Shown: positions 5,553 through 37,619 of the stretch, piece after piece | Layout: each line of letters starts with the position of its first letter | Numbering within the stretch: the stretch's first letter is position 1 | NCBI GenBank assembly: GCA_046538345.1 | Contig: JBKHJB010000002.1 | Location: 1-37,854 of the forward strand | Source: Phycisphaerae bacterium | Lineage (GTDB): Bacteria > Planctomycetota > Phycisphaerae > SM23-33 | DNA: 37,854 nt | Direction: 5' to 3' | The notes under the pieces: generated by a model | The model's input: only the letters and a program-made list of their open reading frames with translations | What the model was told of the DNA's origin: nothing | The model's database searches: none | Made by a program: the position numbers and the translations under genes

Positions 5553-8500
5553 TTAGCCGCTCTCCTGGATTTCGCTGTGCTGGTCACGGAACAGTTCGGC
5601 GCCCTCGGTTATGTAGTTCATACGCGCGTCGTTGTCGAGGTTACGCCACAGAAGGAACTGGTGCCTGACCAGGTCCATGAAACCGTAATTCGTACGCAAC
5701 CATGCGTCCTCGGTGCCGGAGAAGCGATGGAGATTCAGTTGCACACCGAAGACTCCCTCGTTCTCGGTGGGAACTATCTTCATCTCCATCTTCTGAGCGA
5801 CGTCGAGGTCGTACGGACTGAGCCACATATCCGCTCGGATCCGTAAAGCTTCCTCCTCGCCGCTGAGCATATCCAGCTCTATATTCCGGCAGTTGAAGCC
5901 CGGGCTGGCCGCCTCGGTGTGATTCAAGAGAAACCGCCGGAAGAACGCCATCATACCCACGGCGTTACCGCGGGTCAGTGTGAAAGGCAGGTCGAAATGG
6001 ATGCTGTGATCCGACGGCTCGGGCAGTTCCCACTTACCCATGCCGCTGGGCGCGGCCAGGCGGGCGGCCTTGTTGGCGGGCACGAGAGTCGCCAGCAGCA
6101 CCACCACGCCGGTCAGCATAGCCAGTCCCAGCGCCGAGAGAGAGGTGAAGTTCAAGCTCAGGCCCGCCAGGAACTCCGGGTTCACGTTCTGCACCCAGCC
6201 GACAATGTTGGCGAACAACAGGCCGGAAAAGGTGCCGAAAACGATACCCAATACGCTGAAGACCGACGATTCGCTCAGCAGCAGGAAAGATATCTGACCC
6301 GGTGAAAGGCCGATCGCGCCGAGCATGCCGACCTCACCCTTTCGCTCCTCGACGTTGGCGAGCATCGTGTTCAGCACAATGAGTATGCAAAGGAGAACCG
6401 GGACGACGATCTTCGCCAGACCGCCGATGCTCGAAACGTTCTTCGCGGTCACCAGCGCCGGCTCACCGTCCCTGGTGCCGAAGACGGTTCTGTTGGTCCG
6501 CAGCGCGAAGTCCTTGTAGAACTGCGCCTGGTCCTGGTTTCCACCGAAACGCACGGCCACCGAGCGATTCTTGGCTTGCACCTCGTCGGAGGCGGCGTGC
6601 GGGACGATCGCCAGATCTTTCCAGCTCATGTGGTACAGGGGCTTTTCGTTGATTATATCCCCACTGCCGGCGCTGGCGGTTATGGCACTGCGCCGATAGT
6701 CCACCATCGCAAGCGACTTGCCGTTGACGTCGCGAATGCGGTCCGCGTGGTCGGTGTCCAGTATGCCGACGACGCGCCATTCGCGGTTTCGCATCAACAC
6801 CTTGGGCAACTCATCCTCATCGAGGCGGTTGCCGTCCTCGTCGTAGATCATATCGGGCGTTATGCCGACCGCCTCTGCGCAATTGTCCGGCAGTATGACC
6901 GCGAATCGCTCGGCCGGAATCCCGCGCGACCTGTCCTCCGCACGGAACCATTCGTTGTTGCTAACCGCCTCGTTCAGACCGCTGAAATCCGGCTCGTTCG
7001 GCATAAACGTCATTACGCCCGTGATGATGTCCATCCGGTCGCCGTGGCGGACCTTGATCTGATTGACCCCCTCACGGTCCATATTGTTTCCACCCTCGAC
7101 CTCGAGATAGTAGCCACGGGTGGTCATCTCGTGCTCCGGTCCGAACTCGCTGTAAACCGCCGAGACAAAGGTGTCTTTCAGTTCCGTCCAGGAGAAGTTG
7201 CGGAACATTATCCCTTCGTACTTCGGAGCCAGCGGGTCCACCCTCCGCCCGGCTACGTCCTGCTCAAGCGGTACGGGGCGAATGTGCATCTCGTCTTCGC
7301 CGCGGACCGATACAAAGGTAATTATCGAGAACGTCAGCACGGTTACGGTAAAGACGGTCAGGAACGTCCTCGCCGGTCGTTTCTTGAGGTTCGAGACACC
7401 CAGCGAAAGGGCCGTTCCCAGCGACCCCATCAGACTTATCTCGTCGCCTTCGACCTCACCGGCGGCCGCCCTGGCGCGACGCACCAGCACCTCGAACCGC
7501 TGGTAACTCAAGACCAGCACGATCAGCGCCATCAATATCATCGTGAAGGCGATCATCACCACGAACGGCGAGACGGCAATGTCGAACGCCGGGTGGAAGA
7601 ACTTCATGAACACCACGCCCAGCACAAAGATTATCGCCGTTCCCACCAGCCGGGCGACGATGCTGCTACCGCCAATGACCAGACGCTCCAGAAACGCGCT
7701 GGCCGGGACGAGCAGACCCATGAGTATTACCGCACTGAAGACGGCCTCGCGACCCAGCTTCAGGATACGCGGCAGGTTCTTGACCAGGATACCCCAGCCC
7801 TCTCGGGCAAGCCCGACGGACGACTGCCAGTCATGCTCTTCGGCGGCCTGGCGAGACCTGTCTATTTTCGCCCGGCTACGTTCCAGCGCGTCATAGACCG
7901 AGGAGTCATGAATCCCAAACTGCTCATAGAGGTCGTAGCGGTACCGCGCGATGCGGTACATATCCTCGGCAACCCGCAGAGGCGTCAGCGGGAGCACCAG
8001 GTTGCGGTCATTCCCGTCGGGACCTACGGCGTAGCCCTCGCCCTTGAGGTCCATGACTTCCTTCGTCTCCTGGTCCTTGGCTTTCTCGGGCAAATCGCCG
8101 ACGAGCAACATCTTGTACTGCATGCTCTTCTGCGCCAGCACTCTGGCTCTGCGACGCTCGGGCTTGTACTGCTCGGGATCGAATCCGGGAATATCCTCCA
8201 GACCCGGCAGTCCCTCCCCCAACTGGCGTTGCTCGTACGACATATACAGAACCGTAGAATCGACATCCTGCTCTGAATACTGCAACTGCGGATTGTCCAG
8301 GGCATAGTGCCGGGGTGAACCATTGCGGACGGCGTCAACCACCCTCAGATCCTGGCGGTCCCCAGCAGTTCCTCCGATGGGCTGATAGTCCATCGGGTCC
8401 GGACCGGGAGCGAACACCCACGGGTACACATCGGCGAGGATCAGGTTCTTTTCCTCGTCTTCACCGTCGCGGAGTTTGAATGTCATCGACTGCTGCTGGG

Positions 8501-32217: not shown

Positions 32218-32265
32218 GCCCCTGACCCAAAGGCAGCTTTCGGCATTGTGAAGGAGACATACCGG

Positions 32266-33231
32266 ATGGACGCAACGGAGATCCCACTGGGAGAACTCGA
32301 CGAACGCGCTTTCATCGACGAGCAGGTAAGCGCCATCGCAGACGCCGTCGGAGACGGTCGGGCCGTCAACGCCCTTTCCGGCGGTGTGGACTCGGCCGTG
32401 GTCACCATGCTCGCGCATAAGGCGCTGGGGGATAAACTCACCACCTACTTCATCGACAACGGGCTTATGCGAGCCGACGAACCGCAGTGGACCGTGGACT
32501 TGTTCGCCAAGCTGGGCGTTCCGGTGGAGCTGATCGACGCAAAGGAGCAGTTCTTCGCGTCGCTTAAGGGCGTCACCGACCCGGAAGAAAAGCGCCAGGC
32601 GATTACCGACACTTTTTACAAGAACGTCTTCGCCCGGCTGGTCCGCGAAAGCGGGGCGACGCATCTGCTCCAGGGCACAAACTTCACCGATGTCGAGGAG
32701 ACCGTCGCCGGCATCAAGCGGCAGCACAACATCCTCGCTCAGCTCGGCATCGATACCGAGAGTGAGTACGGATACGTCGTTATGGAGCCGATTATCCAGC
32801 TCCGCAAGACGGCCGTGCGTCGCGTCGGCAAAGCGCTGGGCCTGCCCGAGGAGCTATACAACCGCCCGCCCTTCCCCGGACCGGCGCTTTCCGTCAGGGT
32901 CGTCGGCGAGGCGACGCCGGATCGCATCGAAACCGTCCGAAAGGCGACGCGTATCGTCGAGCAGGAGCTTTCCGAAACCGGCGCGTTCCAATATCTGGCG
33001 ATACTCCACGCCGACCGCGTAACGGGCATCCGCGACGGCAAGCGCGATTACGGACTGCAGATAGAGGTCCGCTGCTGGGAGAGCGAGGACGCCGTCACCG
33101 CAGAGCCGACCGAGCTGACCTGGCGGACGCTGAAGCAATTCTCCGGTCGCATCACCGCCGAGGTTCCCGGCGTCGTGAGCGTGACCTACAACATCACCAC
33201 CAAGCCGCCGTCCACCATAGAGGCCATCTGA
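32266..33231 (+). CDS. guaA: GMP synthase-type ATP pyrophosphatase plus dimerisation domain, stand-alone (no glutamine amidotransferase domain)
   Basis: PP-loop SGGVDSAVV, FIDNGLMRADE, VTDPEEKRQAI, LLQGTNFTDVEE, RPPFPGPALSVRV, C-terminal KPPSTIEAI (compare canonical KPPATIEWE). The ATG at 32266 is 9 nt after AAGGAG. At 321 aa it corresponds only to the C-terminal two-thirds of fused GuaA. Confidence 0.8.
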   Translation: MDATEIPLGELDERAFIDEQVSAIADAVGDGRAVNALSGGVDSAVVTMLAHKALGDKLTTYFIDNGLMRADEPQWTVDLFAKLGVPVELIDAKEQFFASLKGVTDPEEKRQAITDTFYKNVFARLVRESGATHLLQGTNFTDVEETVAGIKRQHNILAQLGIDTESEYGYVVMEPIIQLRKTAVRRVGKALGLPEELYNRPPFPGPALSVRVVGEATPDRIETVRKATRIVEQELSETGAFQYLAILHADRVTGIRDGKRDYGLQIEVRCWESEDAVTAEPTELTWRTLKQFSGRITAEVPGVVSVTYNITTKPPSTIEAI

Positions 33232-33267
33232 GCCACACTACCGGACGAGCAAACAGTGGGAGAGAAA

Positions 33268-34377
33268 ATGGCCGCCAAACTGGTGCTGGAAGACGGAAGC
33301 TGCTTCGAGGGCGTGTCCATAGGCGCCGAGGGCACGTGCACGGCCGAGGTGATACTCAACACCGGCGTGGTGGGATATCAGGAGAACCTCACCGACCCCG
33401 CCAACGCAGGCAAGATTCTCGTGCCCACCTATCCGCTGATCGGCAACACCGGCGTCGCGGAGAAATTCTCGCTTTCGGCGAGGGCGTCCTGCGGAGCGGT
33501 CGTTATCAAGGAGCTGAGCAGTGTTCCGTCAAACTTCCAGTCCGAGGGCACGCTGGATGGTTTCCTCGCGGAACGCGGGATGATCGGAATCGCCGGTGTG
33601 GATACCCGTGCGGTGGCGGTGACGATACGCGATAAGGGCGAACAGGTCGGCATCGTCTCCACCGACGATTGCGGCGCCGACGAGTTGCTCACACGCCTCC
33701 GCGAGCAGAAAGATTCCATCCGCCGCGACCGGATAAGCGAGCTGAGCGTTTCCGAGCCGACCAAAGTATCCGCCGGGTCCGGTCCGAGCGTGGCGGTGGT
33801 GGATCTGGGCGTCCGGGCCGATTTGACGGCACAACTGACGGCGCTGGATCTGGACATCACGCTTCTGCCTTTCAACACGCCCGCCGAGACCATTCTCGAA
33901 GGCGGCTACGAGGCGGTGGTCTTCACCTCCGGACCGGAGGAGGACGAGGCGGTCGCAGCCGTGGCGCAGCAAGCGGCTAAGCTGCTGGGCAAGCTCCCGT
34001 TGCTCGGCGCGGGCGTGGGGCACGAGGTGCTTGCACTCGCCTGCGGGGCGAAGCTTACCTGCCTGCCGGTAGGCCATCGCGGGGCGAACTACCCGGCCCG
34101 CGAGCCGGATAACTTCAACGGCGAGATTACCGTCCAGAACCACCGCTACGTCGTCGAGCGTGATTCATTGGGCGACGACCCGACCGTGACGCTTATCAAC
34201 GTGAACGACGAGACCGTGGAGGAGATCGCCTCCCGACGGCTGCGGCTGCTGTCCACGCAGACCGTCCCCGCCGCCGCGCCCGGCGAGATCCATCACGTAT
34301 TTACCCGATTCGCAGGAATGGTTCGCAACCAGGAGGACCCCACGTGCCGAAGCGCACCGACATCCACAAAGTCCTGA
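33268..34377 (+). CDS. carA: Carbamoyl-phosphate synthase small subunit homolog with an apparently inactive glutaminase domain
   Basis: N-terminal CarA domain [57 protein letters not shown]. The GATase half aligns to E. coli CarA, but GICLGHQ is GAGVGHE and FQGHPEASPGP is [14 protein letters not shown] at 33268 follows GGGAGAG. Overlaps carB by 34 nt. Confidence 0.85.
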
Positions 34378-37300
34378 TGATCGGCTCCGGGCCTATTGTC
34401 ATCGGACAGGCGTGCGAGTTCGACTATTCCGGCTCACAGGCGTGTAAGGCGCTCCGCGAGGAGGGCTATTACACCATCCTGGTCAACTCCAACCCCGCGA
34501 CCATCATGACGGACCCGGAGATGGCCGACGTGACCTACGTCGAGCCGTTGACGGTCGCCGCCGTCACCGAAATCATCAGGAAGGAACGCCCCGACGCCGT
34601 CCTGCCCACGCTCGGCGGCCAGACCGGGCTGAACCTGGCGTACTTCCTGATGCAACAGGGTGTGCTGGAGGAGTACGGAGTCGAGTCCATAGGCGCAGAC
34701 GTCGAGGCCATCGCCCGCGCCGAAGACCGCGACAAGTTCAAGCAGGCGATGGCGGAGGTAGGCGTCAAGACCCCCGCCAGCGCCATCGCCACCAGCGTCG
34801 AAGAGGGTCTGCGAATCGGCAAAGAGATCGGCTTTCCGCTGATTCTGCGCCCGGCCTATACGCTGGGCGGGACCGGCGGCGGGACCGCCTACAACACCGA
34901 GGAGCTGAACGAGGTGCTGCGCAGCGCCATCGCCGCCAGTCCGGTCCAGCAGGTGCTCGTCGAACAATCCGTCCTCGGCTGGAAGGAAATCGAGTTCGAG
35001 GTGATGCGCGACTGCGCAGACAACGTCATAATGGTCACCTCCATGGAAAACATTGACCCCATGGGGGTGCATACGGGCGACTCGGCCGTGGTGGCGCCGT
35101 CGCAGACGCTCTCGGCCGAGGAGTACGCCGAGTTCGTCCACCTTTCCAACAGGATTATCCGCAAGATCGGCATCACCGGCGGCGGCGCGAACATCCAGTA
35201 CGCCCAGAATCCCGAAACGGGGGAAATAGTAATCATTGAGGTCAACCCCCGCCTGAGCCGCTCCTCCGCACTGGCGAGCAAGGCGACGGGCTTCCCCATC
35301 GCGCGTGTGGCGACCAAGCTGGCCGTCGGTCTGACTCTACCGGAGGTGACCAACGACGTAACCGGCTGCACGACCGCATACTTCGAACCGACGGTCGATT
35401 ACTGCGTATTCAAAATCTGCCGCTTCACCTTTGAAAAATTCCCACAGGCCCAGCCGGTTCTCAGCACGTCCATGAAGGCCGTCGGGGAGGCCATGTCCAT
35501 CGGGCGGAACTTCCGCGAGGCGCTGCAGAAAGGCATCCGTTCGACGGAGATGGCCCGGTTCGGACTCGGCGCCGACGGCAAGGACAAGATTGCCGACGAG
35601 CAGCTCGCCGAGCCGTCGCACGACATCGCCGAGCACGTCAAGGACAAGATACGCACACCCAACGACCAGCGCCTGTTCTATCTGCGCTACGGGCTGAAGA
35701 TGGGCCTGAGCGTTGATGAGATATTCGAGCTTAGCCACATCGACCGCTGGTTCCTGGAGAACATCCGCCAGATTGTCGAGCTGGAGGACGAGCTTAAGAC
35801 CCACCGCCGTGACGGAGAGGTAAGCATCGACGATGAGCTGCTGCTGCGGGCCAAGGCGTGGGGCTTCTCGGACCGTCAGCTTGCCTGCCTGCTGGGCGTC
35901 ACAGAAGAGGAAATCCGCTCTCACCGCCGAGGCCGCGGGATAAAGCCCGTCTATAAACTCGTGGACACCTGCGCGGGCGAGTTCACGGCCGAGCGACCCT
36001 ACTACTACTCCACCTACGAGAGCACCAACGAGAGCGTGCCCTCCGACAACCGCAAGGTCCTCATCCTCGGCGGCGGTCCGAACCGCATCGGTCAGGGCAT
36101 TGAGTTCGACTACTGCTGCTGCCACGCCTCCTTCGCTTTGCGGGAGCAGGGGCTGGACAGCATCATGGTCAACTGCAACCCCGAGACCGTCTCCACGGAC
36201 TACGACACCTCGACCAAGCTGTACTTCGAGCCGCTGACAGTGGAGGACGTGCTGGAGATTATCGACCTGGAGAAGCCCGAGGGCGTCATCGTGCAGTTCG
36301 GCGGGCAGACTCCGCTGAGCATCGCCGTGCCGCTGGAAAAGGCCGGCGTGAATATCCTCGGAACCAGCCCGGACGCCATCGACCGCGCCGAAGACCGCAA
36401 GCGCTTCCAGGCGATGCTGCGCAAGCTGGACCTGCTCCAGCCGGACAACGACACCGCCAGCAGCTACGACGAGGCGCTGGCGATAGCGCGGCGCATCGGC
36501 TACCCGGTGGTGGTGCGTCCGAGCTACGTTCTGGGCGGTCGGGCTATGGAAATCTGCTACGATGAGGACGACCTCGAGGGCTACATGGAGAAAGCCGTCG
36601 AGGCCTCGCCCGAGCATCCGGTGCTGCTGGATAAGTTCCTCGAGGACGCCGTGGAGGTGGACGTGGACGCGGTCTGCGACAGCAGGCAGTGCGTCATAGG
36701 CGGAATCATGGAGCACATCGAGGAGGCGGGCATCCACTCCGGCGACAGCGCGATGGTCCTGCCGCCCTACACTCTCGCCGCGGACACCATCGACCGAATC
36801 CGCCGCTACACCGTGGCGATGGCCTTGGAGCTGGGCGTCAAGGGTCTGCTGAACGTCCAGTATGCCGTGAAGAACGACGTGGTGTACATCCTGGAGGTCA
36901 ACCCCCGCGCCAGCCGGACGGTTCCGTTTATCAGCAAGGCGATCGGCTCGCCGCTGGCGACAATCGCCACGAAGGTGATGATGGGTCAGACGCTCGAGGA
37001 GCTTGGCTTCACCAGCGAGCGGAAGATAGACCACTTCGCGGTGAAAGAGTCGGTGTTCCCGTTCTCGCGGTTCGCGGGCGTGGACGCCCTGCTGGGCCCG
37101 GAGATGAAATCCACCGGCGAGGTTATGGGCGTGGACGCGTCGTTCGGCGCCGCCTATGTCAAAAGCCAGATAGCGGCCGGGCAGAACCTCCCTACCGAGG
37201 GCAACGTCTTCGTCAGCGTCCGCAATCAGGACAAGCGAAAGGTGGTCTCCATCGCCCGGAAACTCGCCGACATGGGGTTCAATCTGCTAGCGACGCACGG

Positions 37301-37619
37301 AACAGCCGAGGTGCTGCGGCGCAACGACATACCCGTCGAGGCGTTACCGAAGCTCCAGGAAGGCCGGCCCAACATAGTCGATTACATCAAGGACCACCGC
37401 GTGCAGTTGATCATCAACACGCCGTCGGGCAAGATGACCCGCCAGCACGAGCGGGAAATCCGCTCGCACGCGATCCTCTACTCCGTGCCGCTGATAACGA
37501 CCATCGCCGGCGCGGATGCTTCGGTCAACGGCATAGAGCACCTCAAACGCCGCCCTGGTGTCACCGTCAAGTCGCTGCAGGAATACCACGCGGAGATGGA
37601 GGCCGAACAAACCGCCTGA
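34344..37619 (+). CDS. carB: Carbamoyl-phosphate synthase large subunit
   Basis: GTG start giving (M)[41 protein letters not shown]. Two ATP-grasp halves (the second begins [25 protein letters not shown]), an oligomerisation domain and a C-terminal MGS-like domain. Full length, 1091 aa. Confidence 0.97.

Follow-up and report, generated by a model that had tools for sequence, protein, structure and literature searches.

Carbamoyl-phosphate synthetase (CPS) is described in bacteria as a glutamine-dependent enzyme: a 2018 review classes the bacterial enzyme as type II, which is glutamine dependent (PMC6022934), and all CPS types except CPS I use glutamine according to the paper on the human CPS1 structure (PMC4655335). 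The type II enzyme of Escherichia coli, CarA-CarB (EC 6.3.5.5; PDB 1jdb and 1c30), has a small and a large subunit. Animal CPS I (human CPS1, EC 6.3.4.16; PDB 5dou and 5dot) carries an inactive glutaminase-like domain on a working synthetase and must draw its ammonia from solution. Here, we analyzed a window of 37,854 nucleotides that is an entire contig (JBKHJB010000002.1 of assembly GCA_046538345.1, our C187) of a Phycisphaerae (Planctomycetota) metagenome-assembled genome (MAG; 2.35 Mb, 87% complete, 63% G+C). It holds a carA-carB pair with the two-subunit build, gene order, and domains of the E. coli enzyme in which the small subunit has lost the Cys-His-Glu triad of its glutaminase. We write CarA′ for this subunit and the family around it, CarB1 for its partner in the window, and CarB′ for the clade of such partners. 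Full-text literature searches and CPS reviews yielded no description of a bacterial CarA without the triad.

The pair belongs to a set of three successive plus-strand genes (guaA-C, carA′, and carB1; operon 32266-37619). The parts of carA′ on which the argument turns are these:

33268-34377, plus strand: carA′, CPS small subunit without the triad (a putative pseudo-glutaminase), 369 amino acids, Pfam PF00988 and PF00117
33280-33654, plus strand: N-terminal CPSase small-chain domain, the CarB-docking part, intact (PF00988, residues 5-129, 134.7 bits)
33796-34263, plus strand: glutamine amidotransferase (GATase)-like domain, fold predicted to be retained, catalytic residues lost (PF00117, 69.8 bits)
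33931-33945, plus strand: GPEED at the site of the GPGDP loop (E. coli Gly243 to Glu224, Pro245 to Asp226)
34012-34014, plus strand: GGC, Gly249 at the position of the nucleophile (E. coli Cys269)
34264-34272, plus strand: GTC CCC GCC, Val333-Pro-Ala335 at E. coli His353-Pro-Glu355

When compared by phmmer with the PDB sequences, CarA′ aligned with the E. coli CarA structures end to end (E = 6e-45) and ungapped through both active-site segments, a pairing that involves VFGICLGHQLLALASGAK and FSFQGHPEASPG. Cys269 is replaced by Gly249 (GGC), His353 by Val333 (GTC), and Glu355 by Ala335 (GCC), with codon coordinates re-derived from the sequence, and the SNGPGDP block of canonical CarA reads TSGPEED. 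A sequence-only reading of the window had claimed the three substitutions and the altered block, and both withstood realignment. In MAFFT alignments that included 120 relatives and 77 canonical CarAs, the Cys and His columns fell where HMMER had put them; the loop around Glu355 is ambiguous by one residue, and no register restores the Glu. A shift in alignment register was accordingly rejected. Further changes fall in the glutamine pocket (G243E, S47A, and Q273E in E. coli numbering). The other CarA of the same genome shows FGICLGHQ and VQYHPEAAPGP intact, so the method detects the triad where it is present. Because CarA′ is without the nucleophile, the His, and the Glu, and has the GPGDP loop and Gln273 replaced too, its sequence argues that it cannot be a class I glutaminase.

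Profile searches separate what has been kept from what has been lost. PF00988 scores far above its cut-off of 27 bits, in line with the earlier view that the docking domain is intact, and PF00117 exceeds its cut-off of 22.8 bits, while the canonical CarA of the genome reaches 185 bits with the latter. Against the equivalog TIGR01368, which describes the glutamine-hydrolyzing small subunit, CarA′ scores 281.7 bits, under the cut-off of 307.35; against the looser NF009475 it scores 282.6 bits, over the cut-off of 221. CarA′ is thus a member of the CarA structural family by PF00988, by its GATase fold, and by its adjacency to and overlap with carB, and it falls outside the active class I glutamine amidotransferases by its triad and by the G243/S47/Q273 pocket.

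The substitutions do not stem from one faulty assembly. At the triad codons, Logan contigs of four runs match the window exactly, and sequencing error was rejected for that reason; the runs are metagenomes of microbial mats and a hypersaline lake from one study, one of them possibly being the sample from which the window came; a single T>G at 34161 in one run lies outside these codons. Relatives share the substitutions, a check that the sequence-only reading had named: the Gly-Val/Ile-Ala combination recurs in the independently assembled orthologue of a sister species (88% identity) and in three further metagenomic relatives.

The gene is also being maintained. The ratio of nonsynonymous to synonymous substitution rates (dN/dS), computed against the orthologues of the sister species (G002), is 0.157 for the whole of carA′, 0.125 for its N-domain (residues 1 to 150), 0.183 for the GATase-like domain (residues 172 to 369), 0.067 for carB1, and 0.10 for guaA-C. 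Both carA′, including its dead domain, and carB1 are under purifying selection, and a recent pseudogene is rejected by these ratios together with the size of the family described below. An AlphaFold2 model of CarA′ (mean predicted local distance difference test score, 88.8; predicted template modeling score, 0.90) superposes on both domains of E. coli CarA (1jdb chain F) with a template modeling (TM) score of 0.89, the next best match being the N-terminal moiety of human CPS1 (TM score, 0.83). The CarA fold is thus predicted to be retained, and the triad and pocket losses support the earlier suggestion of a small subunit kept for its structure and probably unable to hydrolyze glutamine.

The large subunit appears fully equipped and has changed along with its partner. 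Every CarA′ examined is directly followed by a full-length CarB. CarB1 matches the four CPS large-subunit domain families (D1, D2, D3, and MGS), and 17 active-site positions in the two ATP-grasp sites (R129, R169, E215, E217, H243, Q285, E299, N301, R303, R306, R715, E761, Q829, E841, N843, R845, and R848) are conserved in CarB′ and canonical CarB, CarB1 included. The nine allosteric-domain positions conserved among canonical CarBs are likewise kept, the positions checked matching those of CarB2, the second CarB of the genome; the view of an intact CarB thus holds at all of these sites. When 24 CarB′ were compared with 59 canonical CarBs, at positions not chosen beforehand, 10 positions proved to be fixed differently in the two groups, and CarB1 carries the CarB′ state at 10 of 10 and CarB2 at 0 of 10. 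Six of these substitutions (C232T, R265V, V304L, A324T, D333P, and P360C) occur in 24/24 CarB′, with the canonical residue in 59/59 canonical CarBs at five of the sites and in 58/59 at A324. In the window they lie as follows:

34344-37619, plus strand: carB1, full-length large subunit of the CarB′ clade, 1091 amino acids (NF003671, 1637 bits)
35037-35039, plus strand: Thr232 at the ammonia-tunnel gate residue (E. coli Cys232)
35136-35138, plus strand: Val265 at E. coli Arg265
35253-35255, plus strand: V304L
35313-35315, plus strand: A324T
35340-35342, plus strand: D333P
35418-35420, plus strand: P360C

Arg265 is reported (Kim and Raushel, 2004) to lie in the tunnel wall at the subunit interface. 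The ammonia-tunnel gate of CPS is formed by A314, A251, and C232 (PMC8674909, PMC4655335), a Cys-Ala-Ala set that human CPS1 retains (PMC4655335). CarB1 keeps Ala251 and Ala314 and has Thr232, so that its gate departs from the canonical one. Position 265 is changed in two other lineages too: a distant contig from Planctomycetota (L133) has Thr there and a Sporomusaceae contig has His, both partnered with a dead CarA. In the latter (L161, carB at 6083-8035), the CarB partner of an independently dead CarA (Gly-Leu-Glu) carries R265H and A324T and keeps C232, which on sequence comparison is a partial convergence with the CarB′ clade. That clade has a support of 0.88 in the CarB tree, or 0.999 when L133 is added to it; the window and G002 form the sister group of all Omnitrophota CarB′, and the nearest canonical sequences come from Aerophobetes, Omnitrophota, and Planctomycetia. 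Judged from these alignments, the dead CarA and its CarB have co-evolved as a pair, a change that takes in the tunnel gate (C232T) and R265.

Set beside the E. coli enzyme, then, the window pair has the same CarA fold, the same ATP-grasp catalytic residues where checked, and the same nine allosteric positions, and it differs in the absent triad, the GPEED loop, S47A and Q273E, the six CarB substitutions, and a score below the TIGR01368 cut-off. CarA′ is in effect a natural counterpart of the E. coli laboratory mutants C269G and C269S. As for animal CPS I, the parallel drawn in the sequence-only reading stands as an analogy and fails as kinship. The resemblance is that CarA′-CarB1, like human CPS1, would have to take its ammonia from solution. 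The differences are that CPS1 consists of a single fused chain of about 1500 residues and needs N-acetylglutamate, whereas the window encodes two separate open reading frames, and that CPS1 loses the Cys only (to Ser) and keeps its gate (PMC4655335), whereas the window pair loses the whole triad and has its gate Cys changed to Thr. CarA′ matches CPS1 at E = 1e-33, a weaker match than that to E. coli CarA, and we found no sign of common descent with CPS I or III. In a tree made up of prokaryotic CarBs only, CarB1 nests among Planctomycetota, Omnitrophota, and Aerophobetes. Because the carA′-carB1 lineage is bacterial, its triad was lost independently of that of CPS I.

CarA′ is one member of a large family. 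All 120 of the 120 best matches in a collection of 5.8 billion proteins are without the triad; the Cys column holds Ser (81), Ala (26), Gly (11), or Val (2), and the His column Tyr (77), Asn (16), Asp (8), Val (6), Cys (6), Ile (5), or Ser (2). Most of the relatives with a named source are MAGs of Omnitrophota, annotated by NCBI as "glutamine-hydrolyzing." A family profile run against 301 Omnitrophota genomes separated CarA′ (450 to 634 bits) cleanly from canonical CarA (at most 397 bits) and located CarA′ in about 26 of them, at least 19 of which have a canonical CarA as well. A scan of contigs with the pattern TYPLIGNYG also matches canonical CarA and left four usable CarA′ loci.

The former active site of this family is not drifting freely. 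G241, P242, G271, Q310, N311, and H312 do not vary across its members, of which all but one or two also have H272 and Q351. G243E occurs in 120/120 and P245D in 119/120 members, where 77/77 canonical CarAs have Gly and Pro. Other new, near-invariant residues are D362E, G339E, Y48N, Q51K, D69F, and R93Q, and S47A/T, M36V, T37V, and Q273E are frequent as well (all in E. coli numbering). The window protein has E243, D245, N48, K51, F69, Q93, E339, and E362 and departs from the family majority at positions 313 and 360. It shares with the Omnitrophota clade the carA′-carB adjacency, 46 to 52% identity in CarA and 70 to 75% in CarB, all of the clade residues in CarB, and all but two of those in CarA. 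The differences from that clade are that the window clade has Gly-Val-Ala at the triad, where Ser-Tyr-Val/Ala is otherwise commonest; that, in E. coli numbering, it retains Pro360 and Ala293, with Arg in place of Ser at 313; and that guaA-C leads its operon, whereas the Omnitrophota genes lie in pyr or pur clusters.

Loss of the triad extends beyond this family. Among the 150 closest representatives of 50%-identity clusters, 88 carry triad substitutions (P0121-P0269), mostly Gly at the Cys position. A FastTree phylogeny of 246 CarAs distributes 115 triad-less sequences over 22 maximal clades, which require at least 18 state changes, and it places the window CarA′ within a 51-member clade in which all are dead (support, 83). 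From the 22 dead clades, the at least 18 changes, and the 51-member clade, it follows that triad loss is recurrent in CarA and that the CarA′ lineage is old. A second large clade of dead CarAs has 33 representatives, mostly with Cys changed to Gly; two of these representatives come from short contigs (about 1 kb) that contain no carB.

The genes around the relatives point to nucleotide synthesis. The arrangement pyrR-pyrB-pyrC ... carA′-carB′-fpg ... pyrK-pyrD is found at about a dozen Omnitrophota loci, and carA′-carB′-purF-guaA at about six. The Sporomusaceae contig reads pyrB-pyrC-carA-carB, and in the cultured Firmicute Desulfonispora thiosulfatigenes DSM 11270 a Cys-to-Gly CarA is encoded within a complete pyr operon, pyrB-pyrC-carA-carB-pyrK-pyrD-pyrF-pyrE. 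This CarA (L132, FWWT01000021.1, 7028-8107) has the Cys-to-Gly change alone and retains the His and Glu, so that its sequence suggests an early step in this kind of triad loss; its CarB keeps C232 and R265. The guaA that follows carA′-carB′ in Omnitrophota is full length with its triad intact, and a general loss of glutaminases in these clusters was therefore rejected. The gene fpg (formamidopyrimidine DNA glycosylase) lies within a few kilobases of carA′-carB′ in G002 (L041, 3818-4597) and in about 15 Omnitrophota loci (e.g., L134, 12811-13644).

In the window, the pair is preceded by a paralogue of GMP synthase. The remaining features of the operon are as follows:

32266-33231, plus strand: guaA-C, which opens the operon, a stand-alone paralogue of the GMP-synthase ATP-pyrophosphatase without a GATase domain, 321 amino acids from the ATG at 32266
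33257-33263, plus strand: GGGAGAG, Shine-Dalgarno-like, 5′ of the carA′ ATG at 33268, read from the sequence
34331-34336, plus strand: AGGAGG, the Shine-Dalgarno sequence of carB, within the 3′ end of carA′ and 7 nucleotides before the GTG, from the sequence

An M50 protease gene, transcribed divergently, stands before the three genes. The start of carB1 at the GTG at 34344 gives a canonical CarB N terminus and a 34-nucleotide overlap with carA′; the overlap and the AGGAGG inside carA′ suggest that the two genes are translationally coupled. In the G002 record, a run of Ns spans the carA′/carB junction (L041, about 8190-8285), and the carB start cannot be compared there. For guaA-C, a GTG at 32248 is an alternative start; its Pfam matches are GMP_synt_C and NAD_synthase only, and it scores 299 bits against TIGR00884, under the cut-off of 338.75. 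The ATP-pyrophosphatase-only build recalls the B subunit of the two-subunit archaeal GMP synthase. In contrast to that system, the guaA-C operon has no partner GATase gene, a complete fused GuaA is present elsewhere in the genome, and guaA-C has loop deletions of its own, in common with L133. Three Planctomycetota genomes have a GATase-less GuaA paralogue at the head of the carA′-carB operon, namely those of the window, of G002 (L041, 6000-6965), and of L133 (7011-7946), the last with a CarA 40% identical to that of the window. These paralogues have common loop deletions and a C-terminal KPPSTIEAI or KPPSTIEYI, unlike canonical GuaA.

The operon has a narrow distribution among close relatives. 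G002 has it in the same order at the same locus and is the only one of 40 same-class relatives with a triad-less copy; we did not find the carA′-carB operon in the 39 others searched. In a third species of the genus (G001), no guaA-C lies upstream of the M50 protease at the syntenic site, on a short contig, and the absence of the operon from that genome as a whole is judged from a MAG that is 93% complete.

A whole-genome Pfam search showed that the organism has the canonical enzymes as well. A second CarA is encoded on contig C216 (N-domain, 177 bits; GATase, 185 bits), as the sequence-only reading had allowed in proposing a functional carA elsewhere, and a second full-length CarB, CarB2, is encoded on C170, unlinked to it. 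Identity between the two copies is 58.7% for CarB and 38% for CarA. A fused, full-length GuaA with an intact GATase triad lies on contig C4 (2993-4624) and is 39% identical to guaA-C. That carA′-carB1 is the sole CPS of the organism was thus rejected. The neighbors of canonical carA and of carB2 are uninformative, and a division of labor between arginine and pyrimidine synthesis could not be demonstrated from them. The dead pair here stands beside a full-length canonical CarB, in contrast to Omnitrophota genomes with CarA′-CarB′, in which no more than the N-terminal half of a CarB, about 550 amino acids long, comes after the live canonical CarA (carboxyphosphate and oligomerization domains; L042, 594-3396; L139, 2995-5728; L140, 2805-5535). 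We found no C-terminal CarB half anywhere in three of these half-CarB genomes (G162, G253, and G140).

We consider it probable that carA′-carB1 encodes an accessory, ammonia-dependent CPS for nucleotide synthesis, analogous to animal CPS I and of independent origin. Its holoenzyme would be unable to use glutamine and would make carbamoyl phosphate from bicarbonate, two ATP, and free cytoplasmic NH3/NH4+. Ammonia could enter through the remodeled former glutamine pocket, with its new near-invariant carboxylates Glu224, Asp226, Glu253, and Glu340, or through an altered subunit interface, and would then pass the re-tuned gate. The E. coli mutants C269G and C269S, as well as tunnel-blocked mutants, reportedly keep NH3-dependent synthesis. 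The product would most likely go to pyrimidine (nucleotide) synthesis, since the relatives stand in pyr and pur clusters. Together with guaA-C, the pair may form a set for nucleotide synthesis in an ammonia mode, beside the glutamine-dependent CarA/CarB2 and GuaA, for times when ammonium is plentiful. Despite the second carA, the pair is conserved and co-evolved and therefore not redundant, and of the options raised by the sequence-only reading, direct use of NH3 stays the best.

A bolder form of this proposal is possible, and we put it forward tentatively. Glu224, Asp226, Glu253, and Glu340 may have rebuilt the pocket as a site that captures and deprotonates NH4+ and feeds a re-tuned tunnel (C232T and R265V). 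The module might let anaerobes of ammonium-rich, energy-poor habitats bypass glutamine synthetase for nucleotide nitrogen. With some 18 to 22 losses of the triad among the 246 CarAs sampled, ammonia-dependent CPS might then be a widespread bacterial enzyme class that has gone unrecognized and that databases mislabel as glutamine-hydrolyzing.

Several points weigh against an ammonia-dependent CPS. We found no RNA run containing carA′. Growth can be explained without this copy, since the genome has a complete canonical CPS. Desulfonispora keeps C232 and R265 and the Sporomusaceae contig keeps C232, which means that the tunnel changes are not required with a dead CarA, and the matched substitutions of CarA′ and CarB′ could merely keep paralogous complexes from mixing. 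Finally, the Ser that many family members have at the Cys position need not exclude weak hydrolase chemistry there; the window clade has Gly.

We think it unlikely that CarA′ serves only as a structural or regulatory chaperone while CarB1 obtains its nitrogen from a live glutaminase acting in trans, be it the canonical CarA by exchange or another amidotransferase. Canonical carA and carB2 are unlinked, which makes subunit mixing conceivable, and in Omnitrophota the live CarA is paired with the N-terminal half of CarB only. Yet the 34-nucleotide overlap and the Shine-Dalgarno sequence that carB1 has to itself favor a 1:1 cognate complex with CarA′, the matched interface and tunnel substitutions mark CarA′ and CarB′ as co-evolving, and a few genomes show only CarA′ (e.g., G042, with one PF00988 hit), these MAGs being small or of unknown completeness. 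For the trans-acting ammonia donor that had been suggested earlier, we found no candidate gene in the operon.

It is similarly doubtful that the remodeled pocket has acquired a new activity or ligand, such as another nitrogen donor to hydrolyze or bind, or that it now gates CarB1 by allosteric sensing of, for example, glutamine or an acidic metabolite. Such a role would account for a pseudo-active site that keeps its invariant residues and has gained near-invariant E243, D245, and E362, and glutamine binding to E. coli C269S is said to stimulate its ATPase. Against this reading, however, there is no conserved nucleophile, the Cys column varying among Ser, Ala, Gly, and Val and the His column among Tyr, Asn, Asp, Val, Cys, and Ile, with Gly and Val in the window clade, and G243E and S47A change conserved positions of the glutamine pocket.

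The matched substitutions might instead reflect insulation between paralogues, unrelated to ammonia, in which case the pair would be a poorly efficient, NH3-using back-up CPS. The coexistence of canonical CarA with CarA′ in at least 19 of 26 genomes fits this idea, as do several clade-specific positions in the CarA N-domain, which forms the interface. We regard it as quite improbable, since C232 is a buried gate residue of the tunnel rather than a surface contact, position 265 is changed in separate dead lineages too, and all three genes are under strong purifying selection. A decaying or nonfunctional duplicate, or an assembly or sequencing artifact, would be in keeping with an operon known from this and one sister species, from none of 39 other relatives searched, and not from the syntenic site of G001, but it can be set aside as very improbable given the open frames, the dN/dS of 0.07 to 0.18, a family of more than 100 members with invariant residues, and the four runs identical at the triad codons.

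If an ammonia-dependent CPS is indeed what carA′-carB1 encodes, a conserved bacterial CPS with a pseudo-enzyme for its small subunit and matching changes at the tunnel gate would contradict the rule that bacterial CPS uses glutamine. To this the window adds a dead pair that coexists with a complete canonical CPS and a link to a glutaminase-less GMP synthase. Such an enzyme would also correct a systematic error of annotation, the label "glutamine-hydrolyzing," that affects nitrogen flow in metabolic models of uncultured anaerobes. Finally, such a pair would offer a natural system for studying how free ammonia enters CPS, a question that is still open for human CPS1, with Desulfonispora thiosulfatigenes DSM 11270, cultured and bearing a related Cys-to-Gly CarA, as the experimental handle.

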